Below are positions 30,844 to 62,648 of a DNA stretch of 64,000 nt, one piece after another; positions within the stretch are counted from its first letter, which is position 1, and each line of letters starts with the position of its first letter. The DNA is from Thermodesulfobacteriota bacterium. GTDB lineage: Bacteria > Desulfobacterota > Desulfobulbia > Desulfobulbales > SURF-16. The stretch is from assembly GCA_049323655.1 (NCBI GenBank), contig JBMONO010000006.1, forward strand, positions 18,953 through 82,952, written 5' to 3'. Below the pieces are notes generated by a model. The model was not told the origin of the DNA, searched no databases, and saw only the letters and a program-made list of their open reading frames with translations. The translations under genes were made by a program, and so were the position numbers.

Positions 30844-31035
30844 TCATTGGCGGCCGGACTCTTTTGCCTGCTGGCAAAAATAGATCATCCAGCATTGCCA
30901 CGGCAGGGTGGAAACCGTGCATTCCCCCGGACACTGAAAATCCTTTTCGCGGATCGGGCAGAGTCCGCATTTCGCCCGGCAGATGTATTTGGCCGCCTTC
31001 TCGAGGGCTGCGTGCAGCGTCTGGTCGTCTTTCAT
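30844..31035 (-). CDS. Small cysteine-rich protein (63 aa, 7 Cys), hypothetical
   Basis: MKDDQTLHAALEKAAKYICRAKCGLCPIREKDFQCPGEC... Third-position GC is clearly higher than for the overlapping plus-strand ORF 30835-31059. GGGGGA RBS upstream. Confidence 0.5.
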   Translation of the reverse strand: MKDDQTLHAALEKAAKYICRAKCGLCPIREKDFQCPGECTVSTLPWQCWMIYFCQQAKESGRQ

Positions 31036-31183
31036 GGCATTTTTCCCCCTGTGTTATGACGACATAATGCATGGGAATTTTAAACATTTTATTAAAAACC
31101 CATTACAAATGCATTACCAGCCCCTCTCCGATTCCATCGGGATAGCGGCTTTCCGCCAGAACCTCAGCCAATGGAGAAAAAAA

Positions 31184-31564
31184 ATGAACACCACCCCGCA
31201 TCTCGTTCATCTGCAATCATACCGGTCTGATCTGCTGCGCCGGCAGAAAGAATATCAGACAGCCATTTTTTCCGAGGAAAGCAAGATGATCGTCGGCGCC
31301 GGCATGGAAGACGGCGACCGCTCCACCAGAGAACACCTGAATCACATGAGCCTTCTCCAGCTTGATTCGATCAGCCGGACGATCAACACCATTGACCGGG
31401 CGCTGCAAATGATCGAGGCCGGCACTTACGGTATCTGCAGTGCATGCGACGAGGACATCGACGAACAGCGATTGCGTTCGCTGCCCTTTGCCACCCTCTG
31501 TTTGGATTGCCAAAAAAAAGCGGACATCGCCGGACGGCAGGCAAGGGAAAAATGCGCGGCGTAA
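31184..31564 (+). CDS. DksA/TraR-family C4 zinc-finger protein
   Basis: GTYGICSACDEDIDEQRLRSLPFATLCLDCQ. GGAGA RBS. Start ATG 31184; the track start at 30983 is too early. Confidence 0.75.
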   Translation: MNTTPHLVHLQSYRSDLLRRQKEYQTAIFSEESKMIVGAGMEDGDRSTREHLNHMSLLQLDSISRTINTIDRALQMIEAGTYGICSACDEDIDEQRLRSLPFATLCLDCQKKADIAGRQAREKCAA

Positions 31565-31612: not shown

Positions 31613-31740
31613 GGTCTCGTAAAAAGTGAAAATTAACCACAGAGACCGCAGAGTACACCGAGACAACTAATTGTAATTATACATATTTTTTTCTGTGCTC
31701 TCCGTACACTCTGTGGTGAAAATAGATTTTTTACGGGTTT
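31613..31740 (-). repeat. MITE-like intergenic repeat, copy D (inverted orientation), with an extra end fragment at about 31583-31612
   Basis: GGTCTCGTAAAAAGTGAAAATTAACCACAGAGACCGCAGAG...AACTAATTGTAATTA...CTCTGTGGTGAAAATAGATTTTTTACGGGTTT. Confidence 0.85.
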
Positions 31741-31764: not shown

Positions 31765-31947
31765 ATGACTGTTGAGGAAATACGGAAAAAGGCAAGGGAA
31801 CTCGGCATTAAAACGGCCAATCTGAAAAAAGCCGATCTGATCCGCGCCATCCAGCACGCGGAAGGTTTTACAAGCTGCTTTGGCCGGGACGCTTCGGCCT
31901 GCGACCAGGCAAGCTGCTGCTGGCGTCGGGAATGCCTCCGTCAGTAA
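31765..31947 (+). CDS. Small SAP/Rho-N-like domain protein with a Cys-rich tail
   Basis: MTVEEIRKKARELGIKTANLKKADLIRAIQHAEG (helix-extended-helix SAP-like), then CFGRDASACDQASCCWRREC. AAGGAG RBS. Confidence 0.6.
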   Translation: MTVEEIRKKARELGIKTANLKKADLIRAIQHAEGFTSCFGRDASACDQASCCWRRECLRQ

Positions 31948-32264
31948 CCTGATCCGGCGCCAACAGCGCTGCCATGGATCACATCATGGATGGTGCTCCG
32001 GAAATAGCGGACATGGACGTCATCGAGGCGGAGATAGGAGCTGCCCTCATAACCCCTGGCCAGATCACGGATGGTGCGGCAGACGAGAATGGAGAGATAG
32101 TCCGTAATGCGGGCCTGCCGCTTCATCTCCAGAAGAATTTCCTCGTACAGGGGCCGGATGACCTCCTCCGGCCTCTCCATCTCGATGCAGAGCAGCCGGA
32201 TGGCGGTGCTGTGCTGCTTGCGTTCGGCATCGTTCGCGTAGAGGGGGATCTCCGCCTGGCCCAT
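31941..32264 (-). CDS. Hypothetical protein (possibly DUF3562-like)
   Basis: EEILLEMKRQARITDYLSILVCRTIRDL resembles what I recall of DUF3562. AGGAGA lies 9 nt upstream of ATG 32264; the track start at 32306 is a TTG. Confidence 0.35.
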   Translation of the reverse strand: MGQAEIPLYANDAERKQHSTAIRLLCIEMERPEEVIRPLYEEILLEMKRQARITDYLSILVCRTIRDLARGYEGSSYLRLDDVHVRYFRSTIHDVIHGSAVGAGSGY

Positions 32265-32314
32265 GAATTCATTCTCCTGCCGTAGCTCATGCATCTGAAC
32301 AAACAATGATGCAC

Positions 32315-32442
32315 TGAAAAAAGTCTTTTTCTTGCCACTGGACGCACAAAGAAAACAGACACAATATCTGAAAGTACAGAAAATTATCTTTGTGCGCTTC
32401 GTGGTCTCTGTGGTTGATTTTCAGTTTGCCAAACGCCATCAC
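32315..32442 (+). repeat. MITE-like intergenic repeat, copy E (diverged left half)
   Basis: ...GAAAAAAGTCTTTTTCTTGCCACTGGACGCACAAAG...TCTTTGTGCGCTTCGTGGTCTCTGTGGTTGATTTTCAGTTTGCCAAACGCCATCAC. Confidence 0.7.
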
Positions 32443-32463
32443 CCGTCACCTCGCCAACAATCT

Positions 32464-33714
32464 TCAGGTCAGCGAAAGCAGCACCGGCAACAGCAGCTCG
32501 GCGTCGATAAAAGGCGCGCTCCGCTCGCTGACCAGCTGGCAGTCGATCACGCCGATACCTCTTTTTGCAAGATAGCCGCTGTCCAGCCCGCCGGGATATT
32601 GCCCCTTTTCCCTGTCCACCAGCACCAGATCAACGATGTCGCTGGGCGCAATGCCGGCCCGGTCCCGGCTGCCATATTCCACCAGTTTCCGCACCTGATC
32701 GGTCACGTCGAGGCCGCAACATTCCGGATCGTGGCCGGTATTGGGGACAAAGACCTTCGGCACCTGTCGTCCGGCGATGGCCGAACCGACACCGCGGGGC
32801 AGAAGATTGGCGAGGATACTGGAATAAAAACTGCCCATGGGATAACAGATGAGATCCGCCGCGCTGATCAGGTTTCTCATCTTCTCCCGGATCGGCACCT
32901 CAACCTCTCTTGCGACGTCGGGATCGCCGCTCAGATAGATCCGTTCGATCCGTTGCAGCAAAGGGGGGTATTCCTTGCCGGTTATCTTGTGCTGGCCGAT
33001 GACGGTGCTGCCGTCGGCCAGTTCGGCGGCCAGATGGAGATAACGGTTGACAATGGGCCGGACAATCCCTCTGGCCTGGACCAGCCGGGAAAAGATATAG
33101 ATGACCGGATCGGGATGCCGCCGGTTTTCCAGATAGCCGGCAGTCAGAATAAGGTTGCCGACACTGGCGCCGCGCAGATCAAAATAGGCGGGCATGCGTT
33201 GCTGAAAGGAGAAAAGATGATTGCGGATGATGCGACGGGTGGGGTGATGAATTTGTTTTACCAGTGGATGGACTCCCTGCACCATCTCACGAAATTCTGC
33301 CGCCAGGACCGCCTCATCGGCCTCCTTGGCAAAACGGTAGGCAAAGAGCTCGTAAATCTCCGGATTACCAAGCAGGGTCTGGTCGGCAAGGTCCATGAGC
33401 CGCGCCCGCAGATCGCCGATGGACAGCATCTGAAAGGCGCGGCGCAGCACCGCCGAACTGCCGCCTGAATCAAAGGCGGTGATGATATGGATGGAGTTGT
33501 GGGTATAGTTTTTCAGCAGCCGGCTCAGGCCGCGCAACGCGCTGCCACCGCTGAAAAAGAGGAGACGCGGGCCAAGCTCCGGGGCCTTCACGTAGCGAGC
33601 GAGTTTGATTCGATCCGGGATGACGATACGGCGTTGGACAGTCAGGGAGATTTCCACCGATTTTTCCATGCCCATCACCTCGACAGGGTCCGGCAACCAG
33701 TGCGACGCCATCAT
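32464..33714 (-). CDS. CofD/YvcK-family protein (GAK-system CofD-like)
   Basis: LLFFSGGSALRGLSRLL...IITAFDSGGSSAVLRRAF...IGDLRARL matches the CofD/YvcK nucleotide-binding motifs. ATGA overlap with the upstream kinase gene (33711-33714). Confidence 0.7.
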   Translation of the reverse strand: MMASHWLPDPVEVMGMEKSVEISLTVQRRIVIPDRIKLARYVKAPELGPRLLFFSGGSALRGLSRLLKNYTHNSIHIITAFDSGGSSAVLRRAFQMLSIGDLRARLMDLADQTLLGNPEIYELFAYRFAKEADEAVLAAEFREMVQGVHPLVKQIHHPTRRIIRNHLFSFQQRMPAYFDLRGASVGNLILTAGYLENRRHPDPVIYIFSRLVQARGIVRPIVNRYLHLAAELADGSTVIGQHKITGKEYPPLLQRIERIYLSGDPDVAREVEVPIREKMRNLISAADLICYPMGSFYSSILANLLPRGVGSAIAGRQVPKVFVPNTGHDPECCGLDVTDQVRKLVEYGSRDRAGIAPSDIVDLVLVDREKGQYPGGLDSGYLAKRGIGVIDCQLVSERSAPFIDAELLLPVLLSLT

Positions 33715-34796
33715 TGCTGCCCGAAAAATTCCAGACAGGCTCCGGTTGCGGCGGCAAAGTCCACCCCGCCGCTGATTTCAAGCACCGTAATGTCGGAGAG
33801 CATGGCCAGGTAATTCGCCGGTGAATGATCGAGCACCCCGTCTGTCTCCTCCGGCAGAAAAAAAAGACCGGTTGACTTCATGAAGGCGGGCAGCAGATCC
33901 TGCCGGGCGGCGAGATCAACCCGTTGCACCACGGATTTTCCTTTGTCCCGCCGCCAGTTGAGGATCACCAGGCCCCGCATCGGGGCGGAGAGGGCAAAAC
34001 GGTCGGCGCCGAAGGCCTCATTGATGAAGACGTCGTATTTGTGTTCGAGCTCCCACAGCTCCTCGGTCGGCAGAGCGGCGAAACGCCTTCTTTCATGGAG
34101 CGGGATGACCCGTTGCAGATCCGCGTTATGGAGGGCGGTGCCGGGATTGATCCGCGGCAGCTTGGCCACCCCGAACATGGTGGTCTGGTCTGTCTCCTTT
34201 TTCACCAGCAACCGGTCATTGCTGACAAAATGCGCGCCGCTGCTCATCAGATGCAGGGCCAGGGTCGATTTTCCCATGCCGGAGAAGCCGGCCAGGGCAA
34301 GCCCCTGTCCGGCCAGGGTGACCCCGGCGGCATGGCCGAGCAGGTAGCCCTGATGCAGCTTCCAGGCGATAAAACGGCTGTTGATGAAATTGACAATCTG
34401 ATTTGGGTTGGCGCAGCAGGGCCCCACCGCCAGATGATCCTCGCCGCCGAAGAGAAAGACCATGCCGGTCAGCCGTTTGCGCACCACCCGGCCGTCCGCA
34501 AGATCAAGATACTCCTCCTTGATCTTGGTCTTGCCCGGATCAGGCTCCTTGATGACGAATGTTTCGCGAAAATGCGGTTCCGGCGCCTCATGCACCGTGA
34601 TCCTGATCATCGCCTTTTCCTCGTCCCGGACAACAAAGGGACGGAAATAATGTTCGAGATCAGCGATGAGCTTTGCCGCATTACAGCGCACCTCGATGGA
34701 GCAGCCGGCAAAAAGCAGTCGGATAACATGGCCGGTGGGGTAGCGATGACGGAACTCGCGGACCATCTCGTGACGGTTCAGTGGTGAGTGCTTCAT
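33711..34796 (-). CDS. HprK-related P-loop kinase (type B-like)
   Basis: HAAGVTLAGQGLALAGFSGMGKSTLALHLMSSGAHFVSNDRLLV resembles the HPr kinase/phosphorylase C-terminal P-loop region. ATGA overlap with the ATP-grasp gene (34793-34796). Confidence 0.65.
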   Translation of the reverse strand: MKHSPLNRHEMVREFRHRYPTGHVIRLLFAGCSIEVRCNAAKLIADLEHYFRPFVVRDEEKAMIRITVHEAPEPHFRETFVIKEPDPGKTKIKEEYLDLADGRVVRKRLTGMVFLFGGEDHLAVGPCCANPNQIVNFINSRFIAWKLHQGYLLGHAAGVTLAGQGLALAGFSGMGKSTLALHLMSSGAHFVSNDRLLVKKETDQTTMFGVAKLPRINPGTALHNADLQRVIPLHERRRFAALPTEELWELEHKYDVFINEAFGADRFALSAPMRGLVILNWRRDKGKSVVQRVDLAARQDLLPAFMKSTGLFFLPEETDGVLDHSPANYLAMLSDITVLEISGGVDFAAATGACLEFFGQQ

Positions 34797-35668
34797 TTCT
34801 CCACCCTCCGCCGGACATACTCGACATAGAGCCCGGCCGCATCGATATTGCGCGCCTCGAGAATACCCCGGAAGCCGCCAAAGGCGGAGACCTCGAACAC
34901 CATCGGACCGTCGCTGGTCTCCACCACGTCAACACAGGTAAAGTCGAGCCCGAACGGCGCCTGGGCCCGATAAGCCAGCTCGATGATCTCCGGTCCCGGA
35001 TCAACGGCCTCATACCTGCCGCCGGAGGCGGTGGTGGTATTCCAGGCATCATCCTGCTGGCAGCGGGCATAGGTCGTCATGTACTCGCCGCCGAGAAAAA
35101 CGACGCCGAGATCCCGACCGTTGAGATCGATTTTTTTCTGGATGTACATAATCTTGTTTTTCGCCTTGTATTCCTCGATGACACCCCTGGCGTTGTCCTC
35201 GGCCCGCAGGACAAACATACCGCGCGCCTTGGAGGTGTAGAGCGGCTTGAACACGGCCTCGCCATATTCCCGCACCGCCCGCAGGGCGCTGTCGACGTTT
35301 TCGGTGATGGTCAGGGGCGGCATGGGGATGTTGTTGACCTGCAGGGTAATGGTGCAGGACAGCCGGTCGAGCACCCGCATGATCCGCAGGGGATCGGAAA
35401 AGATCGGCATGCCACGGTCGGCAAGATAGCGCAGGATCTCCAGCCGGTCCATCAGGTCCGGTGAGTAACGGGAGCCGATCTTTTTGATGATGAGGGCGTC
35501 CAGGGCATTGAGTTCGAGACCGTTGCTCGTCACCCGGCCGCTGGGCAGATCGAGACAGATGCGATCCGGTTCGATGAAAATTCTTTCCCCGGTCATCCGG
35601 CCCACCGTATCGGCCAGCAGCTCCGACGACCAGCCGTTTTTTATTCCTATTACTCCTATTCTCGGCAT
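34793..35668 (-). CDS. RimK-like ATP-grasp ligase (GAK-system ATP-grasp)
   Basis: VFKPLYTSKARGM, IMYIQKKIDLNGRDLGVVFLGGEY, NTTTASGG, VDVVETSDGPMVFEVSAFGGF. Start ATG 35668 (MPRIGVIG); alternatives are 35683/35686. Confidence 0.7.
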   Translation of the reverse strand: MPRIGVIGIKNGWSSELLADTVGRMTGERIFIEPDRICLDLPSGRVTSNGLELNALDALIIKKIGSRYSPDLMDRLEILRYLADRGMPIFSDPLRIMRVLDRLSCTITLQVNNIPMPPLTITENVDSALRAVREYGEAVFKPLYTSKARGMFVLRAEDNARGVIEEYKAKNKIMYIQKKIDLNGRDLGVVFLGGEYMTTYARCQQDDAWNTTTASGGRYEAVDPGPEIIELAYRAQAPFGLDFTCVDVVETSDGPMVFEVSAFGGFRGILEARNIDAAGLYVEYVRRRVEK

Positions 35669-35690
35669 GAGTTTGTCCTTCATCATTTAT

Positions 35691-35804
35691 GATGATTTCG
35701 TAAAAGCTGAAAATCTGCCACAGAGACCACAGATGTAACTAATCATAATTAAAGATGTTTTCTATGTCCTCAGTGCGCTCTGTGGTGAAAAAAGACTTTT
35801 TCCG
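35691..35804 (-). repeat. MITE-like intergenic repeat, copy F (inverted orientation), inside the GAK-type operon
   Basis: GATGATTTCGTAAAAGCTGAAAATCTGCCACAGAGACCACAG...CTCAGTGCGCTCTGTGGTGAAAAAAGACTTTTTCCG. Confidence 0.85.
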
Positions 35805-35898
35805 ATTGTATCTTTCATGTACGGTTTTTCTGATCCGCTCCCTATACCTGTCGTGCAGGACATAAGGCCGGGCCGGACCGTCTCTTTCGTGCCAGGCA

Positions 35899-37545
35899 TC
35901 AGTAATACATGATGGCGGTTGGCAGCCGGAAACGCGTCCAGTCGGTGCCTTCGTGGGCCAGCACCTTTTCCAGCAGGAAATGGGCGCGCAAAAACATCTC
36001 GCGGGCAAACTTGGTATTGAGTTCAAAACGGGTCGAGGTGTAGAAGGAGCGGGCCAGAGCGAGGGCCATCCGCGCCTCGAAGGTGGCGTCTTCCTTTTCC
36101 CGGGCAAACTCCTCCGCCATTTCATACATCTTCTTGATCGTCCAGTTGAGCCGGTCGCGCAGCTGCAGCTTGAAGGCGGGCTGGCGGAAATTGGAGATAA
36201 TAAAGACCGAGACATCCTGGACATAGTCGGCATAGCGGGAGCGGTGCAGATCGATGAAATGAATGCGCTCCTTTATTGAGTTATAAAAAATATTGTTGAC
36301 GTTGAAATCGCCATGGATAAAGACGGTAAAGGGCGCCGGCAGCTCCTCCTCGATGAGCAGGCACTTGTCGAGGATCTGTTCAGTGGCATCGATCCGTCGC
36401 TGACCGATGTTCTGCTCCACCCGGTAGAACTCGGGATGGACCTGCAGAACGCTCTCCAGACGGCTCAAAATCTGCTCGACATAGTCGATCTTTCTCGCCC
36501 CCGGCCGCAGGGTGTGATTCCAGACCTCCCGCACCGTGGTCAGCAGCCGGATACAGGCGGCGCTCAACTCCTCGCGGTCGGAGGAGAGAATGACCTCCTC
36601 GTAGGTGCAGCAGGGAATGTATTCGAGCAGCAGGGAGGAGGTGTCGCCGGATTCCTGATAACTGAAAATCTTCGGCACCAGACCGGGAAAAATCTCCGTC
36701 CAGATCTCGATATTTTTCTTTTCGGCCCGGATCTTGTCACGGTTGCCTTCCTTGAAGATGCTGCTGGTGGACTGAGGGAGGAAATGCTCGCCCTGCTCGT
36801 GCTGGAGCTTGCGGATCCGGCAGCCGGATCGGCTGCCGAGAATGGAGGAAAAATCGACCTCGGACAGGGTGCCTCGATAGCCGCTCAAAGTCAGTGACTC
36901 CTCCAGGGCCTGAAACTGATCGATCTTGATCTTTTCCCCGAGGATGGCGAGCAGCAGGGCCTCGCCGATATTGAGCAGGGAATCGCCGATTCGCTCCAGA
37001 TAGCGAAAAATGAAAAGCACGGTGACCAGATCGCCGATATGCCTGCCCTCCCGCATTTCCTCCATGATCTTGACGAAATTTTCCTTGTAATAGGCGTCGA
37101 TCTGATGCTCGGAACGGCAGATCTGCAGGGAGGCGGCCAGATCGCTCTTCTTGAAGGCCGGAATGATTTTCGGCAAAAACTTCTGGATTTCGCTGAGGAT
37201 GATCCGGTAATTGAAGTTCTGGACAAAGGCGACATCGCTGAGATAGCCGACCTGACGGGCAATGTTGACGCAGAAATCGGCGATGCGTTCCAGATTAACG
37301 GCGATGATATGGACCGCGTGAATGGAATCTGTTTCTTTCTTGCTGAGCGGGCTGCCGGCGGTCAGGATATCAAAGCACCACTTCTCGATGATGGTTTTCA
37401 GATTATCGATATAATCATCCTTGCAGATGATTTTCTGCAGATCCTCCTTGTCCCCGGCGGCCAGAAAATCGCTGATGGCATCAACCTGTTTGTCAACCTC
37501 CAGCACCAGGAAATTGAAATTTTCCTCCAGCCCGCGACACAGCAT
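35899..37545 (-). CDS. PhoU-domain / aminoglycoside-phosphotransferase-like kinase fusion protein
   Basis: Two PhoU repeats (NLERIADFCVNIARQV; YLERIGDSLLNIGEALL) sit in the N-terminal half. The C-terminal APH/choline-kinase-like motifs are FIHGDFNVNNIFY and FIDLHRSRYADYVQD. 548 aa. Confidence 0.65.
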   Translation of the reverse strand: MLCRGLEENFNFLVLEVDKQVDAISDFLAAGDKEDLQKIICKDDYIDNLKTIIEKWCFDILTAGSPLSKKETDSIHAVHIIAVNLERIADFCVNIARQVGYLSDVAFVQNFNYRIILSEIQKFLPKIIPAFKKSDLAASLQICRSEHQIDAYYKENFVKIMEEMREGRHIGDLVTVLFIFRYLERIGDSLLNIGEALLLAILGEKIKIDQFQALEESLTLSGYRGTLSEVDFSSILGSRSGCRIRKLQHEQGEHFLPQSTSSIFKEGNRDKIRAEKKNIEIWTEIFPGLVPKIFSYQESGDTSSLLLEYIPCCTYEEVILSSDREELSAACIRLLTTVREVWNHTLRPGARKIDYVEQILSRLESVLQVHPEFYRVEQNIGQRRIDATEQILDKCLLIEEELPAPFTVFIHGDFNVNNIFYNSIKERIHFIDLHRSRYADYVQDVSVFIISNFRQPAFKLQLRDRLNWTIKKMYEMAEEFAREKEDATFEARMALALARSFYTSTRFELNTKFAREMFLRAHFLLEKVLAHEGTDWTRFRLPTAIMYY

Positions 37546-37558
37546 ATCCCCCCCGACC

Positions 37559-37828
37559 TCAGTTCGAAATGGTCATGGGGGTTGCGGAATCACACTTTTT
37601 ATCCTTGCTTTCCACCCATGATATCTTGATGTTGAGTTTATTCATCCCGTCTTTTTTCTTGGCCCGCACCGTGAATTTCATCAGGTCGTCAAGCCGCATG
37701 GAGATCTCGTCGCCATTCGACCTGAGGGTGATCGTCCCCTTTTCAATGGAATCGACCAGCGATTCCAGGTAGGTGCGGATTGTTCCGGCATCCTGCAATG
37801 ATTCGTAATTAAATTTCTGATTCGACAT
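37559..37828 (-). CDS. Small amphi-Trp-domain protein
   Basis: MSNQKFNYESLQDAGTIRTYLESLVDSIEKGTITL...KFTVRAKKKDGMNKLNIKISWVESK. GGAGAGAGGA RBS upstream of ATG 37828. Paralogous to 48557-48835 and 48902-49372. Confidence 0.6.
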   Translation of the reverse strand: MSNQKFNYESLQDAGTIRTYLESLVDSIEKGTITLRSNGDEISMRLDDLMKFTVRAKKKDGMNKLNIKISWVESKDKKCDSATPMTISN

Positions 37829-37868
37829 GGTTCCTCTCTCCTGTAGCCTGTCATGATTCCTTGTCACT

Positions 37869-39038
37869 TCAGCCATTCAGACGTGCCGCGTACTCATCAA
37901 TGATGTTGCCTCTGTCCATCTCGGCGACGATCAGTTTTTTCCGGATGGCCAGATCGTCCCAGACCGGCTGCACCCCGATCTCCCGGGCCATCTTCTGCTC
38001 ATCCTGTTCGTCCGCCGGTTTGACCTTTTCCCCCATGTGAGTGTCATCGCCGGTGAAAACCAGAAGTCGCCGGGCAGACGGGCCAAGATGCCTGTTGCGG
38101 TTGATCACCGTGGTGATGAGAAAATCGGTGAACTCCCGGGACTGCGGATTCCACACCTCGTAGCCGTCAACATCGTATTCGGCCAGGAGAATCGGCCAGA
38201 ACTGTTCAGGATGGGGAATGACGATGCCGCCGCCGAGGGAGCGCGCCTCCTCGATGATCTCCGAGGTGCGGTAAAAAAAGGCCGGAGAAAAATCCTTTTT
38301 CACCTCCAGCTTCACCGCCCGCAGAAAGGTCTGGGCCCGGTTGATAAAGGTGTTGCCGTACTCCTCCCGCAGGGTATTGAAAAAATCCCGCAACAGCTTG
38401 TTCTTGACGTTATCCTGGGGAATGGCGTCGAGATTTTCCTCAAGCAGGGTGTTGACCTTGGCCGTATGGATGCGGACGAATTCAATCAGCTGCTCGTCGG
38501 CCCCGGTTTCGGCGGCCGCCTTCTCCAGCCGCTCCGCCACCGGCCGGATGATGGTGTGAATAAAATCAAAAAGCTGGGAGGCCCGGTATTTGCGGGTATG
38601 TTCGAGGGCGGCCCGCAACACCGAGGCATTGGCCAGGGCGGCGGTGCGGAAATGGAGCAGCAGCTGCACCTTGCGGTTAAAGCCGCGGGAATAACAGTCC
38701 ACCTCGACCCCGCTGTAGTCGCCGTAACTCATCAGCACATTGTGCTGGGTGGGAATGATCAGCGATTTTTTCCTGTTGGGAAAGGTGGCGCAGATCCGCT
38801 GCTCGATGAGTTCCATCGGCACATATTCCGGATGCCAGTGGACGGCCAGCACCTCCTGCTGCCGCGGCAGGATAAGGGCCGGCGTCGTTACCAGATCAAT
38901 CTGCTCACCGGTCAGCTCAATGGAAACGACGTGAAAAAACCGTTCCCGATCCTTTTCCGTCACCTCTTCGGTCAGGCCGTCCCAGACCGGGACGGCCTCA
39001 TTTTCCGGCGATTTTTTTTTCACGAGTTTCATGGGCAT
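37869..39038 (-). CDS. Conserved hypothetical protein with PHP-like metal-phosphoesterase motifs
   Basis: AVHWHPEY (HxH), GGIVIPHPEQF, EVWNPQS and FTGDDTHMG resemble PHP motifs split by a helical insert. 389 aa. Confidence 0.35.
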   Translation of the reverse strand: MPMKLVKKKSPENEAVPVWDGLTEEVTEKDRERFFHVVSIELTGEQIDLVTTPALILPRQQEVLAVHWHPEYVPMELIEQRICATFPNRKKSLIIPTQHNVLMSYGDYSGVEVDCYSRGFNRKVQLLLHFRTAALANASVLRAALEHTRKYRASQLFDFIHTIIRPVAERLEKAAAETGADEQLIEFVRIHTAKVNTLLEENLDAIPQDNVKNKLLRDFFNTLREEYGNTFINRAQTFLRAVKLEVKKDFSPAFFYRTSEIIEEARSLGGGIVIPHPEQFWPILLAEYDVDGYEVWNPQSREFTDFLITTVINRNRHLGPSARRLLVFTGDDTHMGEKVKPADEQDEQKMAREIGVQPVWDDLAIRKKLIVAEMDRGNIIDEYAARLNG

Positions 39039-39050
39039 CTGCTCGTCGTT

Positions 39051-39593
39051 TCATTTGTAGCGGGCATGACACTCCTTCTTCATCCCGCGCAGGACGGCAT
39101 ACTGGGCGTTGACCGCCGCATAATCACCGGTGGCATAAAGCCGGCCAAACTCTTCGCTGGCCGCGCTGTAAGCCGGATAACAGTCGTCACCATAACCTGG
39201 ATAGCCGACCATCAGCGCCGAATCGGCAAGAAAATTCTTTACCATGGCGGGTTCGGGCAATCTGCCCTCCGCCAGCATCGCGCCCATGGCCTTGAAGTTG
39301 CGGTCCATCCGTTTCTTGAAGGAAGTATACTTGCTCTGTTCAGCCCCTGCCTGGTCTGCATCAGGGCCATCGGCGCCGTCATCCGCCCCGTGCTTGATCT
39401 TGATCTTGAACTGAATAAACTCCCCCCGCCTTTTGAGGCCGATCTTCAATTTCTGGAATTCATCCAGACTGATATCAAGATCCTGCAAGGGTGAGCCGTT
39501 ATTGCGCTCGATGGCATCTGCCATCGAGCGCAGGAAAGCGGCGGCCTCTATGACGGAAAACATTCTTTCCAGTTTGTGTGCCCGACCGGTCAT
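39051..39593 (-). CDS. amphi-Trp-like N-domain protein with an XXXCH-type C-terminus (GAK-system XXXCH protein-like)
   Basis: The N-half (AAAFLRSMADAIERNNGSPL...EFIQFKIKIKH) parallels the amphi-Trp proteins. The C-terminus is ...AVLRGMKKECHARYK. GGAG lies 6 nt upstream of ATG 39593 (track start 39635). Confidence 0.55.
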   Translation of the reverse strand: MTGRAHKLERMFSVIEAAAFLRSMADAIERNNGSPLQDLDISLDEFQKLKIGLKRRGEFIQFKIKIKHGADDGADGPDADQAGAEQSKYTSFKKRMDRNFKAMGAMLAEGRLPEPAMVKNFLADSALMVGYPGYGDDCYPAYSAASEEFGRLYATGDYAAVNAQYAVLRGMKKECHARYK

Positions 39594-39836
39594 ATTTACT
39601 CCGTGACAATTCTGATTGTAAGAAAAACGCACCATTCCGCTGTGCGAAGACTTTCAATTACAATACACCAAAAATAGCCCGGTGATTGTTAGATTCAGGT
39701 TAATTTTCCGTTAGCGTTTCATCCCGCCAGAACGGCCTGGAATCCGATCCGCACTGATAAAAAATTAACACAATCCTCACCAGATCCCGACACAGGGGAG
39801 ATAAAGTGGGAATGCACCCACACCACACGGAGGATA

Positions 39837-42233
39837 ATGTGCATGGACCATGCAATCTTTGCCCGCCAGAACAGCGCGGATGCACCGGCGCCGACCCTCG
39901 ACGACTGCCTCGCCCTGCTGGCAATCGACCCCGCCGATGTCAGACAGCTGCCCTTCATCCGGGGTGATGTCACCGCCGGCACGGAAAATGAGCTGCAGGT
40001 GGCGGTGGCGGGGAACAGAAACGAGGTCGACCTGCCGCTCACCATCGAGGCCTCAAGCTACTACGCCAACATCTTCCGCCGGGCCAAATCCGGGGACATG
40101 TCGTGGCAGACCGGCCGCAACCTTGACCGGTATCTCACCGAAAACAGGGACAATATCTGGGAAAATTCCTGGGTGCGTTTTCCCTATCACCGGCTGAACG
40201 ACACGGCGCGCGCCGTGCTGCATGACGACCTGCGGGCCGACAAAAGCACGACAAACGGCAGTCTGCGCAATGACAGCTCGCAATTTTTCTTCCATGCCAA
40301 GGGCGAGCCCTGGCTGCGAATACCGGTGAGCTACCTGCTCAAACTCGCCCTGGCCGATCTGCTGGGTGAAAGCGTTGCCCTGGGCGAAGGCCTGCTGGTC
40401 GCCGGGCGCCGGCTCATGGATCACTTTCTCAACGACAACACCTCGCCGGAGACCACTTCCTTTTACGTCGTTGCCGGCAGAAACAGCGCAACCATCGGCA
40501 ACGGCGTGGCCCGGGAAACGGCGAAACGCTACCTGTTCAGCCAGTTGCTGCTTTCCTACGCCAACCGGAAATTCGGCATCGAGGAACACGGCCAGCAGGC
40601 CCTGCTCTTCTTCTCCCCTCATCCGCCCATCCGGCAGCGCCAGCTCAATGCCGCCATCTCCGACTCCTTCTACCGTGAACTGTTCATGAGCCCCTGCCTG
40701 TCCGGCTGGGACAACGGCGAGGAAAAACATCGGTACATGGCGCTCTGCCATCAGGTGCTGAGCCGCAGTCATATGAACGCGGTCATGAAGCTGCGCGAGG
40801 CCGGCATCGTCACCACCAATCTCGTCGTCCTCCCCCACACCTCCAACATCAGCCTGGCCAACAACGGCACCCATGTCAGCCTGGGCAGCAGAAAACTGAC
40901 CGGGCTCATGCAGGATCCGGGATCCGGCTTTACCGCGGCCCATGAAAAATATCTCGGCGATCTGGGGGCCAAGATCATGGAGCACTTTCTGCCGCTCTTT
41001 GTCGGCACTTACTCCGCCGCCCCCTATCGCCTGGCCTTCGAGGATTTCCACCCGGAAACGGCGCTCGGCTTTCTGCCCCACCAGCTCGATTACACCCATT
41101 TGCGCATGTTCTGGCGACGCTGGAAAAAAAAGGCACGCAACCGCCTCTGCGGTCATGCCCTCACCCCCTTCGGCCCTTTGCGTGTCGATACCTTGCTGCG
41201 TCGAATTTTTCGCCTGCATGGCGATTTTCTGCCGGATTTTCGTCTGATGGATTATCCGGTCTCCCTGCTTTCCACCCAGACCAACTGCTGCCAGAACGGC
41301 CTGCTCGGCAACGATGAGCGGCTCAAGGAGGACCTCGACTCTCTTGGGGTTTTTGACAAACGGATGGCTCTTTATCAGCTCATCCGGCTGCGCCAGCATC
41401 GGGTCATGGGCTTCACCGGCTTTGAGGCGCGCTTCTACTCGCTCTTTTCGGGCTTTGCCGATGATCTCGGCCAGGCCGCGGATCTGCAGATGCTGCTCAC
41501 CGCCCTGACCTACAAACTCATTGTCCGCGATCGCCTCGACCATAACCGCATCCCCGGCATTCCCTTTGTTGAAAGCGAACGCCGTCAGATCCTCTTTGCC
41601 GCCGCCGTCGGGCTGCCCACCTTTTTCGTCCGCCGCGACACGACCAACGCACTGCTGCTCCGCATCCTCCGCCTGACCGAAAACGTGCGGCCCAGCCGCC
41701 GTTATCCCGGTTATCTTCGGGTTTCTATCCGGGAATACCTGCTCGCTCTGCTGCGTTTCATCCAAGCAGAGGGAGCGGATCTGATCGATCTGCTGGCCAT
41801 GCAGGAAACCCTTGCCGATCTCGACAACCGGCTGCGCCATCCCGACCAGGGGGTCTGCGGCCGGTTGGTGCGGGCCATCACCGGCTCCTCTTCGCCGGCG
41901 CGGGAGGCCCCCTTCACCATGGCCGCCCATGATTTCAACGTCGCGGCGGAAGGCTATTACCGCAGGGATCTGCGTCTGGCGCAGATAAAAGAGGCATGGG
42001 ACATTTTCGCAGCCGATGTGCGCGCCATGGCCGATGGCATCACGTTGCTTCCTCTGGAATACCGCACCCTGCTCTATGAACTCACCAATGACAAGGATCC
42101 GGACCGCTTTCTCCGCCAGTGCGCTGACGAGCTGAGCGCAGAGTCGCTCCCGCTCTCCCGGACAACCACCCTCCTTCGCCTCCTGCTGCTCAGTGTCGCC
42201 ACTGACGCCAAAAGAGAGGCAAGCGGAACGTAA
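39837..42233 (+). CDS. Large conserved hypothetical protein (798 aa), no domain recognised
   Basis: Ordinary soluble-protein composition, GGAGG RBS, start ATG 39837 or 39843. Notable block: HTSNISLANNGTHVSLGS. The 753-aa antisense ORF has low-complexity G/A/R composition and is rejected. Confidence 0.6.
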   Translation: MCMDHAIFARQNSADAPAPTLDDCLALLAIDPADVRQLPFIRGDVTAGTENELQVAVAGNRNEVDLPLTIEASSYYANIFRRAKSGDMSWQTGRNLDRYLTENRDNIWENSWVRFPYHRLNDTARAVLHDDLRADKSTTNGSLRNDSSQFFFHAKGEPWLRIPVSYLLKLALADLLGESVALGEGLLVAGRRLMDHFLNDNTSPETTSFYVVAGRNSATIGNGVARETAKRYLFSQLLLSYANRKFGIEEHGQQALLFFSPHPPIRQRQLNAAISDSFYRELFMSPCLSGWDNGEEKHRYMALCHQVLSRSHMNAVMKLREAGIVTTNLVVLPHTSNISLANNGTHVSLGSRKLTGLMQDPGSGFTAAHEKYLGDLGAKIMEHFLPLFVGTYSAAPYRLAFEDFHPETALGFLPHQLDYTHLRMFWRRWKKKARNRLCGHALTPFGPLRVDTLLRRIFRLHGDFLPDFRLMDYPVSLLSTQTNCCQNGLLGNDERLKEDLDSLGVFDKRMALYQLIRLRQHRVMGFTGFEARFYSLFSGFADDLGQAADLQMLLTALTYKLIVRDRLDHNRIPGIPFVESERRQILFAAAVGLPTFFVRRDTTNALLLRILRLTENVRPSRRYPGYLRVSIREYLLALLRFIQAEGADLIDLLAMQETLADLDNRLRHPDQGVCGRLVRAITGSSSPAREAPFTMAAHDFNVAAEGYYRRDLRLAQIKEAWDIFAADVRAMADGITLLPLEYRTLLYELTNDKDPDRFLRQCADELSAESLPLSRTTTLLRLLLLSVATDAKREASGT

Positions 42234-42243
42234 GGGAGAAACA

Positions 42244-43245
42244 ATGCACCAGTATATTGAACGAACCAACCGACAGGTCATCACCGAGGAGCTGTTCGGG
42301 GACAGAATCATCACCTTTCTCTATTCCCGGGGCCGGGAAAAGGCGCCCACCCTCTTTCGCCTGGCCACCGGCGCCCGGATGTCGAGTCTGCTCGGTTATC
42401 TGAACTTTGACCTGCCGCTGGCCCGCACCATCATCGGCAACCGCCGTTTTCTCCTGAAAAACGGCGTCCGGGCCGAGGAATGCCTGATCCCGCCGGAGGG
42501 ATTGACCACGCCGCGGGCGATCTTTGAACGCAAGATTCGCTACTGGAAATACCGGCCCATGCCGGAGGAGGATGACGCCATTGTCTCACCGGCCGACGCC
42601 CGCATGCTCTGCGGTTCGCTCGACGAGGAGAGTCTCTTCTTTCTCAAGGGAAATTTTTTCCGTTATGAAGAGCTGCTGGGAACGGCGAAAAGGATCTGGC
42701 TCAGCGCCTTTCGCCAGGGCGATTGCGCCATTTTCCGGCTGACCCCGGACAAATATCATTACAACCATCTGCCGGTCAGCGGTTATATAGTGGATTTCTA
42801 CGAAATAAGCGGCGCCTACCACTCCTGCAACCCCGGCGCGGTGGTGGAAATGGTCACCCCTTACTCCACCAACAAACGGGTGGTGACCATTATCCAGACC
42901 GATGTGCCGGGCGGCAGCCGGGTCGGCCTGGTCGCCTTTATCGAGGTGGTGGCCATGATGATCGGCGAGGTCGTCCAGTGTTACAGCGACGCCATCGGCT
43001 ACGAAAACCCGGTGGCCATGGAGTCAGGCCTGTTTGTCAAAAAAGGACAGCCGAAAAGCCTGTTCCGGCCGGGCAGCAGCACCGACATCGTTCTCTTTCA
43101 GAAAGGCCGGATGACCTTTGCCGAGGATCTTGTCGCCCAGATGCGGCGTCGCGATGTCATGAGCCGCTTCACCATGGGTTTCGGCGGTCAGTTGGCCGAG
43201 GTCGAGGTTCAGGTCCGCTCCCTGATCGGCAGAAAAAATTCCTAA
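42244..43245 (+). CDS. Phosphatidylserine-decarboxylase-family (pyruvoyl-dependent) protein, long form
   Basis: IVSPADARM, FRLTPDKYHYNHLPVSG and LFRPGSSTDIVLF (GSS self-cleavage site) are PSD hallmarks. AGGGAG RBS upstream of ATG 42244. Confidence 0.7.
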   Translation: MHQYIERTNRQVITEELFGDRIITFLYSRGREKAPTLFRLATGARMSSLLGYLNFDLPLARTIIGNRRFLLKNGVRAEECLIPPEGLTTPRAIFERKIRYWKYRPMPEEDDAIVSPADARMLCGSLDEESLFFLKGNFFRYEELLGTAKRIWLSAFRQGDCAIFRLTPDKYHYNHLPVSGYIVDFYEISGAYHSCNPGAVVEMVTPYSTNKRVVTIIQTDVPGGSRVGLVAFIEVVAMMIGEVVQCYSDAIGYENPVAMESGLFVKKGQPKSLFRPGSSTDIVLFQKGRMTFAEDLVAQMRRRDVMSRFTMGFGGQLAEVEVQVRSLIGRKNS

Positions 43246-43252
43246 TAAAGAC

Positions 43253-43382
43253 AAACCCGTAAAAAGTCTTTTTTCACCACAGAGCGCACCGAGGACACAG
43301 AGAAAACATATTTAGATACAATTAGTTATCTCCGTGCACCCTGCGGTCTCCGTGGTTAATTTTCAGTTTTCACGAAATCATC
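43253..43382 (+). repeat. MITE-like intergenic repeat, copy G, between the PSD-like and Lgt-like genes
   Basis: AAACCCGTAAAAAGTCTTTTTTCACCACAGAGCGCACCGAGGACACAGAGAAAACATATTTAGATACAATTAGTTATCTCCGTGCACCCTGCGGTCTCCGTGGTTAATTTTCAGTTTTCACGAAATCATC. Confidence 0.9.
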
Positions 43383-43399
43383 AAAAAAAGGTGATCATC

Positions 43400-44473: not shown

Positions 44474-44604
44474 AAACCCGTAAGATTTTTTTTTTCGCCA
44501 CAGAGCGCGCTGAGAGCGCAGAGAAAAAATCTTTAATACAATCAGTTATCTGTGGGTGTTCTGCGGTCTCTGCGGGTAATTTTCAGTTTTCACGAGACCA
44601 TCAC
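44474..44604 (+). repeat. MITE-like intergenic repeat, copy H
   Basis: AAACCCGTAAGATTTTTTTTTTCGCCACAGAGCGCGCTGAGAGCGCAGAGAAAAAATCTTTAATACAATCAGTTATCTGTGGGTGTTCTGCGGTCTCTGCGGGTAATTTTCAGTTTTCACGAGACCATCAC. Confidence 0.9.
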
Positions 44605-46559
44605 GCTTCGAGGAGATGCCTGTCAACCGCCAGACGGCAGGTTCCCTTTTCCAGGCAGCCCAGGCAGGCGTTTTCAACAAGCGTGAGGGGAGAGCGGCGG
44701 CTGTTGCCCATCCAGGCAATAGCGAATCTGCTGTGGAGATTGCCCTTGGCCGTCCTTTTCAGAATGGCGATGGAGCGGGAGACGTCTTCCATTGTATAGA
44801 GACGCGGACCGGCCTCGATCAGCAGTACCGCAGCGCTCAGACTGAGCAGGCCGAAGCGTTTTTTTTCACCATTGCGATCAGTTGCCAGGATAAACCCCTG
44901 CTCCCGCTCTCCATGGTCATAGAGAGTCGCGATAGCGTGATTGAATTTGTCGATAATCTCTTCCACCTCTGAACAGAGTCGCGCCATTGCCCCCTTGGCA
45001 AGCACAGCGCCGGCGAAAAAATCATCGCCGCCGAGATGGCCGGCAAAATTCTCCTTGTCTGTGGCAAAAAAAGAATTTTTCAGGAGATCGGCAAACATAA
45101 GAATGGCACGATCGCCCCGGCGAAAGCCGTAATGATCATTAAAGGGCTTGAAATCGTTAAAATCGAAATAAATCAGCCCGTATCCGGTGGCCACGTCCGT
45201 GTAAGCCCTGGTCAGATAATCGACGATCTGGCTGTTGCCTGGCATTTTTGACAGAGGATTCTGCTCCCGGGCAAGGGACAAATTTTTTTCATGAAGTATC
45301 TTTATGATGGCCGCGCTGGTCAGGAAGCCAACGTAACGCCCATCACTGGTCAGGATAATACCTTCCGGATCACGGGTCAGGGAAAACACCTCCAGCAGCT
45401 TTTCAATGGAGCGGGTCTTTTCCATGACCGGGCAGAACGAGACGAAATTCTGGACGTTTTTGCACAGGCTCTTGTTCAGCAGCAGGTTGCGGCCGTATTG
45501 CGTGTAGACATAATCCTTGAGAAATTTTTCCCGGATGATACCGAGCGGTTCACCGCCCGGATTCAAGAGAGGAAAGAACGTCCGCTCCTTGTTCTGACGG
45601 AACTTTTTCAGAACGATCTCCAAGCCGTCCCGGGTATACTGATCAGGTTCCAGGACCACCGGCGGGATGTATTCGATATTGGCGGCGAGAATCTTTTCAT
45701 CACTGTTATCGGCGCGTCTGTCCTTGCGGCCGAGCACGGCGATTTCCTCATAGACAAATCGGATATCCGACAAAATGACGGTCGGCTTCTGGATGAGATA
45801 ACCCTGGACATAATCACAGCCGATTTCCTTGCAGGCGAAATACTCCCGTTCCGTTTCCACCCCTTCGGCGATCACCATACTGCCCAGGATATGGGCAAGA
45901 TCAACCACCTTGGCGACAAAAAGCTTCTTTTTGGCGTCGGTGGCAATGTCATTGATGAAAAAGCGATCGATCTTGACGAAATTCGGCTCCGCGTAGTAGA
46001 GCAGTTGCAGACCGGAAAATCCGGAGCCGAAATCGTCGATGGCGACTTTCAACTGAGACGTCCGCCGTTTCCGGCAGTAGCCGCAAAATGCCTCATAATC
46101 GTCAATGGGCTGCTGTTCCGAAATTTCCAGACAGATCATGCCCGGTTCCACACCACAGGCAGACACCAACCCGGAGAAATTTTCACACAATTCGTCGGGG
46201 TTGGCCAGAATGCGGTTATCGAGATTGAGAAAGAGAATAATCCGCCCATTCTGCGGCAGGAGCAGATATTTGCGGACCGCCTTTTCCCGGAGCAGGAGCT
46301 CGAAAAAGGCAAGCTCACCGTCGCGATAGGCAGCATCGAACATCTCGCCGATCGTGGAGAAACCGGCGGCGGCCCAGTTGCGAACCAGGGCCTCACAGCC
46401 GAGACAGACCCCGGTGTGGATATTGACGATGGGTTGAAAGGCATAGTCAAGCTTCTCAACGATGGCCCGCCAATCGACCCCGCCACTGGGATATGACGTC
46501 TGCCGGCAAAAAGCATGATCGTCACCTGCAAGAATCGCCTCCCCAACAATCAGTGCCAT
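44601..46559 (-). CDS. EAL - CBS pair - GGDEF-like (GGDDF) c-di-GMP signalling protein
   Basis: EAL domain: FQPIVNIHTGVCLGCEALVR, VAIDDFGSGFSG. GGDEF domain: DFNDFKPFNDHYGFRRGDRAIL and HLGGDDFF. The stop codon lies in the end of repeat H. Confidence 0.8.
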   Translation of the reverse strand: MALIVGEAILAGDDHAFCRQTSYPSGGVDWRAIVEKLDYAFQPIVNIHTGVCLGCEALVRNWAAAGFSTIGEMFDAAYRDGELAFFELLLREKAVRKYLLLPQNGRIILFLNLDNRILANPDELCENFSGLVSACGVEPGMICLEISEQQPIDDYEAFCGYCRKRRTSQLKVAIDDFGSGFSGLQLLYYAEPNFVKIDRFFINDIATDAKKKLFVAKVVDLAHILGSMVIAEGVETEREYFACKEIGCDYVQGYLIQKPTVILSDIRFVYEEIAVLGRKDRRADNSDEKILAANIEYIPPVVLEPDQYTRDGLEIVLKKFRQNKERTFFPLLNPGGEPLGIIREKFLKDYVYTQYGRNLLLNKSLCKNVQNFVSFCPVMEKTRSIEKLLEVFSLTRDPEGIILTSDGRYVGFLTSAAIIKILHEKNLSLAREQNPLSKMPGNSQIVDYLTRAYTDVATGYGLIYFDFNDFKPFNDHYGFRRGDRAILMFADLLKNSFFATDKENFAGHLGGDDFFAGAVLAKGAMARLCSEVEEIIDKFNHAIATLYDHGEREQGFILATDRNGEKKRFGLLSLSAAVLLIEAGPRLYTMEDVSRSIAILKRTAKGNLHSRFAIAWMGNSRRSPLTLVENACLGCLEKGTCRLAVDRHLLEA

Positions 46560-49372: not shown

Positions 49373-49451
49373 GCCCTTTTCCTCCCTGTTCATTTTTTTA
49401 GTTTATTGAATCCCTTACCCTGTTATCCCGGATCAGGTCCTCCTCATCCGC

Positions 49452-62642: not shown

Positions 62643-62648
62643 CCATCA

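Follow-up and report, generated by a model that had tools for sequence, protein, structure and literature searches.

The window analyzed here, a stretch of 64,000 nucleotides (nt) of contig JBMONO010000006.1 from a Thermodesulfobacteriota metagenome-assembled genome (MAG), carries an operon of seven minus-strand genes, numbered g1 to g7 in operon order (Table 1). This operon is an ordinary member of the GAK system, which has a name and is defined by gene neighborhood. Five of its proteins belong to the five GAK families. The genes run contiguously in one direction and follow the consensus order. Two that are equally conserved are missing from the named set, one for an orphan protein with a predicted PHP fold (g2) and one for a PhoU-APH kinase (g4).

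The GAK operon and its conservation

The seven co-directional open reading frames (ORFs) span 32464-39593, or extend to 39635 if the longest g1 ORF is taken. All seven were present in the ORF list with the coordinates and lengths of the original prediction, and alignments of homologues favor the shorter starts of g1 and g3 given in Table 1. The junctions are tight. Genes g1 to g4 are separated by 12, 40 and 13 nt, in line with the predicted 12-40 bp, and 4-nt overlaps occur between g5 and g6 (34793-34796) and between g6 and g7 (33711-33714). Both had been described as ATGA overlaps. The former stands, but the latter, which holds on coordinates, is perhaps not the true junction because the TIGR04357 family model covers g7 only from residue 48 and g7 begins past the end of g6 elsewhere. 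Where g7 truly starts is uncertain, possibly downstream of 33714. Between g4 and g5 the gap amounts to 212 nt, or to the predicted 230 nt when counted from the Met-7 start of g5, and it contains one repeat copy as proposed. No signal peptide and no hydrophobic segment compatible with membrane insertion was detected by hydropathy in any of the seven proteins, and promoter and terminator signals across 31800-40000 were not above shuffled expectation. The locus is apparently a complete and intact GAK operon with soluble, cytoplasmic products.

Table 1. Genes of the GAK operon and the repeat copy located within it.
Feature	Position	Strand	Description
g1	39051-39593	-	180 aa; XXXCH-domain protein; longest ORF extends to 39635
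g2	37869-39038	-	389 aa; orphan family, predicted PHP fold
g3	37559-37828	-	89 aa; GAK-type amphi-Trp protein
g4	35899-37545	-	548 aa; PhoU-PhoU-APH/EcKL-type kinase fusion
g5	34793-35686	-	297 aa; GAK ATP-grasp ligase, RimK/LysX/MptN clade
g6	33711-34796	-	361 aa; HprK-related kinase B
g7	32464-33714	-	416 aa; GAK CofD-like protein
Palindromic repeat copy	35695-35815		about 120 nt, in the g4-g5 gap; found by repeat search and in the sequence

The proteins were scored against the curated cut-offs of the five GAK models of NCBIfam/TIGRFAMs (TIGR04354-TIGR04358). The kinase g6 reached 522 bits with TIGR04355 (HprK-related kinase B; cut-off 200), g5 444 bits with TIGR04356 (GAK ATP-grasp; cut-off 300), g7 521.5 bits with TIGR04357 (GAK CofD-like; cut-off 340), g3 64.8 bits with TIGR04354 (amphi-Trp; cut-off 31) and g1 77.4 bits with TIGR04358 (XXXCH; cut-off 40). 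Thus, the assignment to the GAK system made in the original prediction was recovered by profile search for all five families, far over the curated cut-offs.

In a pattern scan covering a single genome for each GTDB species, a relative of g6 was found in at least 564 species genomes. The neighborhoods of the 80 best loci (cited below as L001 and so forth) were compared by searching six-frame ORFs with the window proteins; ORFs were taken from the first start codon past a stop, and starts and some gaps are approximate. These loci span many families of Desulfobacterota as well as SAR324, Nitrospinota, Zixibacteria and Ignavibacteria. The closest one (L001, JBMONN010000035.1) is 96% identical, and a Desulfobulbaceae MAG with 66% identity comes next among the other lineages. 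Presence and order were counted in the 49 loci with full flank coverage. All 49 contain g4, 48 contain g5, and g2 and g3 are each found in 47, followed by g7 (41) and g1 (36), the last being under-detected because of its fast divergence. By these counts g2 and g4 are therefore core members, and g1 and g7 are the most dispensable ones. The order g1-g2-g3-g4-g5-g6-g7 varies very little and is kept in 28 of these loci (23 + 5) from several phyla, with near-variants in the rest. Overlapping or abutting g5 and g6 genes occur in 65 of 78 loci; the gap between g3 and g4 was estimated at a median of 7 nt. The view of the seven genes as one co-conserved set was borne out by this recurrence across phyla. 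Long 'fused' ORFs at some loci proved to be upstream extensions caused by naive ORF calling and not real fusions.

A rare 'lite' variant (L045, 5950-11095; L052, 5147-13072) consists of g3-g4-(g5)-g6 only and is devoid of g2 and g7; in L045 the g5 ATP-grasp is apparently missing as well. It is preceded by a gene for a PAS hybrid histidine kinase and followed by one for an EAL-CBS-GGDEF protein.

None of the nine proteins searched matched any family of the PADLOC-DB component models, and a defense system was rejected on this basis. The open-access literature was searched for the GAK system, its family names, TIGR04354-58 and PF20068, and no paper on the system was found there, which agrees with the original prediction that no function is known for it. 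In a study of D. alaskensis fitness under phosphate limitation no GAK gene could be identified. The only experimental trace found in this literature is a row of a proteome table, which places an amphi-Trp protein in the top 20 by abundance for Dissulfuribacter thermophilus (PMC13490349).

Folds, motifs and nearest relatives of the seven proteins

The motifs on which the original prediction was based (HWHPE, IPHPEQ, GDDTH, HGDFNVNN, GFSGMGKST, FFSGGSAL, FDSGGSS, ISWVESK and KKECHARYK) are all present and conserved across approximately 55-77 homologues. The same holds for the catalytic signatures of each enzyme, including the ATP-grasp motifs of g5 and the Gly-rich ones of g7. However, no enzyme reaches the equivalog cut-off of a characterized family (HprK/P, FomB, RimK, LysX, MptN, CofF, YvcK or PhoU), and therefore substrates cannot be transferred by annotation.

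In g4, PhoU repeats (residues ~6-210) are followed by a kinase domain of the APH/choline-kinase/EcKL type (~240-470). The predicted architecture of two PhoU repeats and an APH-like kinase was confirmed by Pfam, in which PhoU scored 86 bits in two stretches, EcKL 40.1 bits (threshold 22) and APH 37.4 bits (gathering threshold 23.2), and by sequence matches to PhoU and APH(3') in the PDB. Across 69 homologues the kinase motifs HGDFNxNN and IDLxRS are retained, and the PhoU motifs NLERIxD and YLERIGD are conserved as well. With 88 bits, g4 stays below the cut-off of 130 for TIGR02135 (PhoU) because its PhoU domain is fused to a kinase. By its domain composition, g4 holds a PhoU domain and is not a PhoU protein.

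The ATP-grasp protein g5 matches the RimK ATP-grasp domain of Pfam (49.5 bits, above threshold), and its closest PDB chains are LysX, ArgX and RimK. Its scores with characterized families are lower than their cut-offs (in parentheses), namely 153 bits for MptN (350), 108 for the RimK family (143), 98 for LysX (276) and 20 for CofF (300). The kinase g6 has a family-specific N-terminal domain of ~140 aa, and the Walker A motif AGFSGxGKSTLAL as well as SNDR and PRINPGT are invariant. Its scores are likewise too low for HPr kinase/phosphorylase (TIGR00679, 31 bits, cut-off 240; PF07475, 30.9 bits, cut-off 33.3), and it reaches only 30 bits with TIGR04352 (kinase family A) and 19 bits with FomB. 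The CofD-like protein g7 exceeds the threshold of Pfam CofD (132 bits) and scores 112 bits with TIGR01826 (YvcK; cut-off 196), but the F420 CofD equivalog gave no match in the NCBIfam search. As judged from profile scores, g7 is thus related more closely to YvcK/GlmR than to F420 CofD. The motifs FFSGGxAL, FDSGGSSA, GQHxxTGKE and CYPxGSFYSS are conserved in g7.

For g2 no matches were obtained in Pfam, in NCBIfam or among PDB sequences, the latter searched with the single sequence and with a profile. The protein has more than 1600 relatives; among the matches listed, identities range from 56 to 97%, and all are 'hypothetical' proteins without a Pfam domain. An AlphaFold2 (AF2) model built from 30 sequences reached a predicted local distance difference test score (pLDDT) of 87 and a predicted template modeling score (pTM) of 0.84. 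The only significant Foldseek matches of this model are RNase AM/TrpH of Vibrio (9etk, E 8e-6) and BAD_1165 of Bifidobacterium (3o0f/3e0f, E 6e-5), with a probability of 1.00 and modest TM-scores (0.4-0.53). Invariant residues of the family are H67, H69, E71, H99, E112, D114, H129, H276, E278, N297, D331, D332 and H334; H67-x-H69, H99, E112/D114, H129, H276/E278, N297 and D331-D332-x-H334 sit directly after predicted strands, like the metal ligands of PHP proteins. A helical insert occupies approximately residues 139-250. TrpH, RNase AM and Cv1693-BAD_1165 share with g2 the PHP barrel, an inserted helical domain and HxH...DxH-type ligands, but are only 16-17% identical to it. The description of g2 as PHP-like is thus upheld by fold, whereas by sequence no PHP model matched. 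The model supports the assignment of g2 to a new, divergent PHP family, with a putative function as a trinuclear-metal phosphoesterase.

The XXXCH protein g1 was modeled from 14 sequences, with a pLDDT of 79 overall and above 90 in the bundle (residues 79-179). In the model, a beta-alpha-beta-beta domain at the N-terminus is joined through an acidic, disordered linker to a C-terminal bundle of four helices that ends in ...KKECHARYK. The N-terminal domain scores 17 bits with TIGR04354, below the cut-off of 31, and in an hhalign comparison with the g3 family it gave a probability of 67% (E 5e-5), which points to a distant relationship. Hence its predicted amphi-Trp-like nature has moderate backing from the profile comparison, but not from the family model. 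The best domain-level Foldseek matches of the bundle are cytochromes c' (TMt 0.62-0.65, root-mean-square deviation ~3.6 A), beside b562 fusions, a small cytochrome c of Kuenenia and HPt proteins, all with weak E-values. A profile of 35 XXXCH sequences searched against the entire PDB found almost solely cytochromes c' of several species (E 0.04-0.6), plus b562. In these alignments ...kkeCHkryk of XXXCH corresponds to ...CKACHDAYK of cytochrome c'. With hhalign, the probability was 78% (E 1.8e-5) for cytochrome c' of Alcaligenes, in a sequence that agrees with the stretches obtained in the PDB search, and only 5% for cytochrome b562.

Class II cytochromes c (c', c556) and b562 have the four-helix bundle in common with XXXCH, and the C-K-A-C-H-D-A-Y-R of cytochrome c' aligns with C-H-x-x-Y-[KR], the His being near the C-terminus in both. 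However, XXXCH contains only the second Cys of the CXXCH heme-attachment motif, and no export signal was found in g1 (maximum KD19 0.07 in the first 15 window starts of the hydropathy scan). Without a signal peptide, g1 would stay away from the site of c-type heme attachment. By these marginal but mutually consistent statistics the domain resembles a class II cytochrome c minus the first Cys and the export signal, and we hypothesize that it binds heme. Possible distal or axial partners are two Met residues, one near-invariant in helix 1 and the other invariant in helix 2. In a homologue from Zixibacteria (L051, 5395-5946), which ends in ...SISHNKYK, Ser-His replaces the otherwise invariant Cys-His. 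An HPt phosphotransfer domain fits XXXCH less well than cytochrome c' does, as the matches are weaker and the invariant His is C-terminal and not in helix 2.

The amphi-Trp protein g3 also matches PF20068 (38 bits). An alignment of 33 orthologues revealed the signature F-x-Y-E-S-L-Q-D-x-x-[ST]-I at a strand-helix junction, followed by a Lys-rich amphipathic hairpin (...VRAKKKDGMNKLNIKISW; consensus of orthologues VKAKKKxxxxKLSIKISWK, including an invariant Trp) and a short terminal strand of the pattern h-x-h-x. The net charge is -4.6 in the N-terminal half and +5.7 in the hairpin. Ser10 is retained in 57 of 61 distinct sequences. Ser or Thr is the last residue in 37 of these 61 and in 39 of 64 loci (61%), and occurs within the last five residues in 53 of 64 (83%). 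An exhaustive HMMER search of 1.84 billion representatives yielded 315 clusters of g3 relatives, nearly all of them stand-alone proteins of ~85-100 aa, and no Rosetta-stone fusion of amphi-Trp to an enzyme. Weak matches of the amphi-Trp profile to fatty-acid-binding proteins in the PDB (E 0.04-0.5) were judged meaningless.

The F-x-Y-E-S-L-Q-D signature and the Lys-rich hairpin mark the amphi-Trp protein of the operon as a distinct subfamily at the sequence level. A second kind, designated 'type B', has acidic strands (VEVEVEAKxKKxKxKxSLELSWK), lacks ESLQD and often carries an acidic or Lys/Ala/Pro-rich tail; its gene lies 3' of g7 at many other GAK loci. Two tandem 'type B' genes occur in the window, at 48557-48835 (-) and 48902-49393 (-), with 55 and 57 bits for TIGR04354. 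The longer protein has an Ala/Lys/Glu-rich tail, a gene for a methyl-accepting chemotaxis protein adjoins the pair, and an unannotated ORF of 86 aa (49452-49712, -) precedes it.

Genomic surroundings of GAK loci

The genes pstC, pstA, pstB, phoU and/or a gene for a PhoB-like regulator are located up to 10 kb upstream of the operon in 15 of the 80 loci, almost all on the same strand. Several of these loci also carry a gene for a low-molecular-weight phosphatase (LMWP)/ArsC-like protein, as in L019 with the order pstC-pstA-pstB-phoU-LMWP-g1...g7. The neighboring PstB, PstA, PstC and PhoU proteins score over their equivalog cut-offs, as does MgtE (387 bits, cut-off 233), the gene of which was found at nine loci, mostly of Desulfobacterales/Desulfococcaceae. 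It lies directly 3' of g7 in L018, L020, L021, L022, L036, L038, L041 and L042, and upstream on the opposite strand in L030. The PhoU fusion of g4 and the pst/phoU synteny apparently tie GAK to phosphate status, a link that leaves its product unspecified.

Genes for EAL-CBS-GGDEF proteins are located near GAK at five loci (L039, 3678-5579; L072, 3656-5548; L045, 11153-13093; L052, 11099-13072; L024, 1271-2470), and a protein of the same architecture is encoded in the window at 44601-46559 (-). The best NCBIfam match of the EAL domain in L039 is RimA, far below the cut-off. RimA is a cyclic di-GMP (c-di-GMP) phosphodiesterase that regulates the RimK ATP-grasp. This gene context hints at control of the GAK ATP-grasp by c-di-GMP.

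In Maridesulfovibrio/Desulfovibrio loci (L007, L008, L010, L012, L015, L017, L033) the gene directly 5' of g1, at ~4.4-5.6 kb of the locus, matches the C-terminal half of the model for the DVU_1551 family nucleoside triphosphate (NTP) transferase. Judged by its position and family, it could be a supplier of nucleotidyl transfer or reflect plain genus-level synteny.

Divergently from the GAK operon, a gene for a protein of 798 aa (39837-42233, +) overlaps a gene of the phosphatidylserine-decarboxylase family (42193-43245, +). The 798-aa protein gave no match in Pfam, NCBIfam or PADLOC. Two Nitrospinota genomes without detectable g1 and g7 (L054, 14245-17704; L049, 4638-5633) encode relatives of it less than 10 kb from GAK, and in L054 the decarboxylase gene again lies beside it. 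On the other side, directly 3' of g7, the window encodes a small DUF3562 protein (31941-32306, -). DUF3562 genes also occur near GAK in L002 (13508-13810), L005 (4160-4495) and L059 (12374-12613). In the window it is followed by a 60-aa ORF bearing a Rho_N/SAP-like motif (31765-31947, +) and by a gene for a DksA/TraR zinc-finger protein (30983-31564, +).

The repeat between g4 and g5 belongs to a palindromic family that resembles repetitive extragenic palindromes (REP) or miniature inverted-repeat transposable elements (MITE). Its members, of ~60-125 nt with the core CACCACAGAGCGCAC...GTGCGCTCTGTGG, are present in both orientations at about ten intergenic sites of the window. Besides the copy in Table 1, these are 2887-3009, 5200-5267, 16017-16153, 31618-31735, 32305-32441 (just 3' of g7), 43247-43383, 44479-44603, 51862-51998 and 62597-62643. 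The g4-g5 gap measures ~190 nt in the same-species contig L001 and 18 nt in the next relative, L002. The repeat is present in the former and absent from the latter, and is therefore regarded as a recent lineage-specific insertion that stands outside the GAK system.

Possible function of the GAK system

With low confidence, we favor the reading that GAK is a protein-modification cassette gated by phosphate, the substrates or scaffolds of which would be its own small amphi-Trp proteins. Shown directly are the families and modeled folds of the proteins, the intactness of their catalytic motifs, the conserved gene order and the pst synteny, whereas we infer every substrate, the order of the steps and the output. 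The kinases g6 and/or g4 would phosphorylate a hydroxyl of g3, for which the C-terminal Ser/Thr and the near-invariant Ser10 are candidate sites. Subsequently g5, translationally coupled to g6, would ligate a probably Glu-type amino acid to a carboxylate group on g3. Binding of a nucleotide-activated group by g7 would allow the phosphate to be extended or exchanged as a phosphodiester, and the esterase g2 would take the modification off, a role that the modeled PHP fold and its intact ligand set fit. The PhoU repeats of g4 would couple this activity to phosphate status, and the cytochrome-c'-like XXXCH bundle of g1 would provide a second input, possibly heme, redox or gas.

A protein-directed modification is favored because Ser residues in proteins or peptides, such as Ser46 of HPr and Crh, are the main targets of characterized HprK-type kinases, and because the solved relatives of g5, LysX, ArgX and RimK, modify the C-termini of small proteins. 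Furthermore, g3 is obligatory (47/49 loci), small and stand-alone, displays a charge dipole beside its conserved surface signature, mostly keeps Ser10 and a Ser/Thr at or near the C-terminus, and has its gene right in front of g4. The translational coupling of g5 and g6, the reversibility that a PHP esterase would confer and the position of the 'lite' form among signaling genes argue in the same direction. The phosphate link draws on the PhoU repeats of g4 with their intact ERIxD motifs and on the co-oriented pst, phoU or phoB genes upstream of 15 of 80 loci.

Parts of such a cassette are found in known systems. In HprK/P-HPr/Crh and the yvcJ-yvcK-crh cluster of Bacillus, a P-loop NTPase/kinase, a YvcK-family protein and a small phospho-acceptor come together in a regulatory module. 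However, the small proteins of GAK have other folds, and GAK adds the ATP-grasp, the PhoU-APH kinase and the PHP esterase. RimK (with RimA/RimB) and LysX/ArgX-LysW represent the ATP-grasp clade of g5 and act on the C-terminus of a small protein, but g5 stays under their equivalog cut-offs, neither g3 nor g1 has an acidic C-terminal tail, and lysine/arginine pathway genes are absent from GAK. It has been shown for lasso peptides that an HPr-kinase homologue phosphorylates the C-terminal Ser of the precursor and that a second enzyme extends the phosphate (PMC8498205). In the tailoring of paeninodin and pseudomycoidin, with or without a nucleotidyltransferase, such an HprK-type P-loop kinase is encoded beside its small ribosomal substrate. 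GAK resembles this arrangement, and 61% of the g3 proteins end in Ser/Thr. In contrast to lasso tailoring, GAK comprises neither lasso B/C maturases nor an exporter, its candidate substrate is a folded protein of 89 aa, the partner is CofD/YvcK-like and not an NTP-transferase, the kinase belongs to family B and not A, and a C-terminal Ser/Thr is not universal.

Several observations weigh against a modification of g3. The full enzyme set is retained at the 11 of 64 loci whose g3 is devoid of Ser/Thr in the last five residues, and a C-terminal Ser/Thr was therefore rejected as a universal kinase target. Position 10 is Ala in one g3 and Cys in another; moreover, S-x-x-D is a generic helix-capping box, so that the conservation of Ser10 may be structural. 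The C-termini of g3 are non-acidic, unlike those of RimK and LysX substrates. Among the enzymes, the best non-GAK family match of g5 is MptN, a small-molecule ligase, and the kinase domain of g4, of the APH/EcKL type, has its nearer relatives among small-molecule kinases. To our knowledge, CofD chemistry is known on small molecules only. Finally, the pst synteny is limited to 15 of 80 loci, partly from related lineages.

The enzyme relationships would also suit the main rival, a small-molecule or cofactor-tail pathway, which we consider only slightly less probable. Starting from common precursors, such a pathway would assemble a metabolite with a phosphodiester link and an amino-acid cap: a kinase forms X-P, the second kinase an activated X-PP, the CofD-like protein moves phospho-X to an alcohol, the ATP-grasp adds Glu and the PHP esterase trims phosphate, with amphi-Trp and XXXCH as scaffolds, chaperones or regulators. 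The reaction classes are those of the F420 tail (CofD and CofF), the sarcinapterin tail (MptN) and cobamide nucleotide-loop assembly. Like the F420 and tetrahydrosarcinapterin systems, GAK combines a CofD-family transferase with a CofF/MptN-like ATP-grasp of the alpha-L-glutamate-ligase type, and MptN tops the characterized families of g5 with 153 bits. The kinase domain of g4 is of the small-molecule type (APH/EcKL), g6 weakly matches FomB, a phosphonate-monophosphate kinase, and the fold relatives of g2 act on nucleotides, pAp and RNA ends. XXXCH, similar to a heme-binding bundle, might hold a tetrapyrrole substrate. However, GAK is devoid of CofC, CofE, CofG and CofH and adds two kinases, the PHP esterase and the small proteins; the core operon encodes no CofC-like nucleotidyltransferase, no transporter and no scaffold-building enzyme. 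The pathway is further weakened by g7, which is nearer to YvcK than to CofD and missing from ~8 of 49 loci, by the absence or non-detection of g1 in about one quarter of the loci, and by a FomB match of only 19 bits. It also leaves the obligatory small protein g3 unexplained.

A role in buffering phosphate, pyrophosphate or Mg2+ appears unlikely. In this reading the kinases, among them the ATP-grasp in a kinase role (cf. PPIP5K/ITPK1), would produce a highly phosphorylated compound for storage. This polyanion would be coated or bound, in the manner of a phasin, by the Lys-rich amphi-Trp proteins and mobilized by the PHP esterase. This idea draws on the PhoU fusion and the pstCAB-phoU-phoB synteny in 15 of 80 loci, the adjoining MgtE gene, the hairpin charge of +5.7 in g3 and the Lys/Ala/Pro-rich tails of some downstream amphi-Trp paralogues. 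The abundant amphi-Trp protein of Dissulfuribacter thermophilus (PMC13490349) and the ability of HPr-kinase homologues to phosphorylate one Ser repeatedly (PMC8498205) are also consistent with it. On the other hand, g5 clearly belongs to the carboxylate-amine ligase clade (RimK/LysX/MptN) and not to the inositol-phosphate-kinase clade, the adjacency of MgtE is confined to related Desulfobacterales lineages, the Dissulfuribacter protein may be of a non-GAK amphi-Trp type, and no link to a known granule or compound was found in the literature searched. For the glucose-pentakis(diphosphate) granule compound of Desulfovibrio gigas, considered as a conceivable GAK product, the literature search gave nothing relevant, and it is kept as a rival of low weight only. 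That the genes form no functional unit and were juxtaposed by chance or mere synteny is hardly credible. In this genome the operon is indeed split by the repeat element, which lies between g4 and g5, but seven families in the same order and on the same strand in Desulfobacterota, SAR324, Nitrospinota, Zixibacteria and Ignavibacteria, overlapping or abutting g5/g6 genes at 65 of 78 loci and the conservation of all catalytic motifs contradict it.

Within the favored protein-modification reading, GAK might even perform an unprecedented modification, an idea that we regard as speculative and rather doubtful. A phosphate-linked, amino-acid-capped group would be attached to g3 by g6, g4, g5 and g7 and erased by g2, and a cytoplasmic single-Cys XXXCH heme protein would act as redox or gas input, so that the cassette would link phosphate and redox state in anaerobes such as sulfate reducers. 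New to the description of the system are g2 and g4 as core members, the predicted PHP fold of g2, the likeness of XXXCH to cytochrome c', the g3 subfamily and the pst synteny. The GAK system occurs in hundreds of species of environmentally dominant anaerobes and keeps its seven genes in fixed order. Working it out could uncover a protein modification or a cofactor tail that is new, another family of PHP esterases, a cytoplasmic relative of cytochrome c' and, through the PhoU fusion and the pst synteny, a new branch of bacterial phosphate homeostasis.

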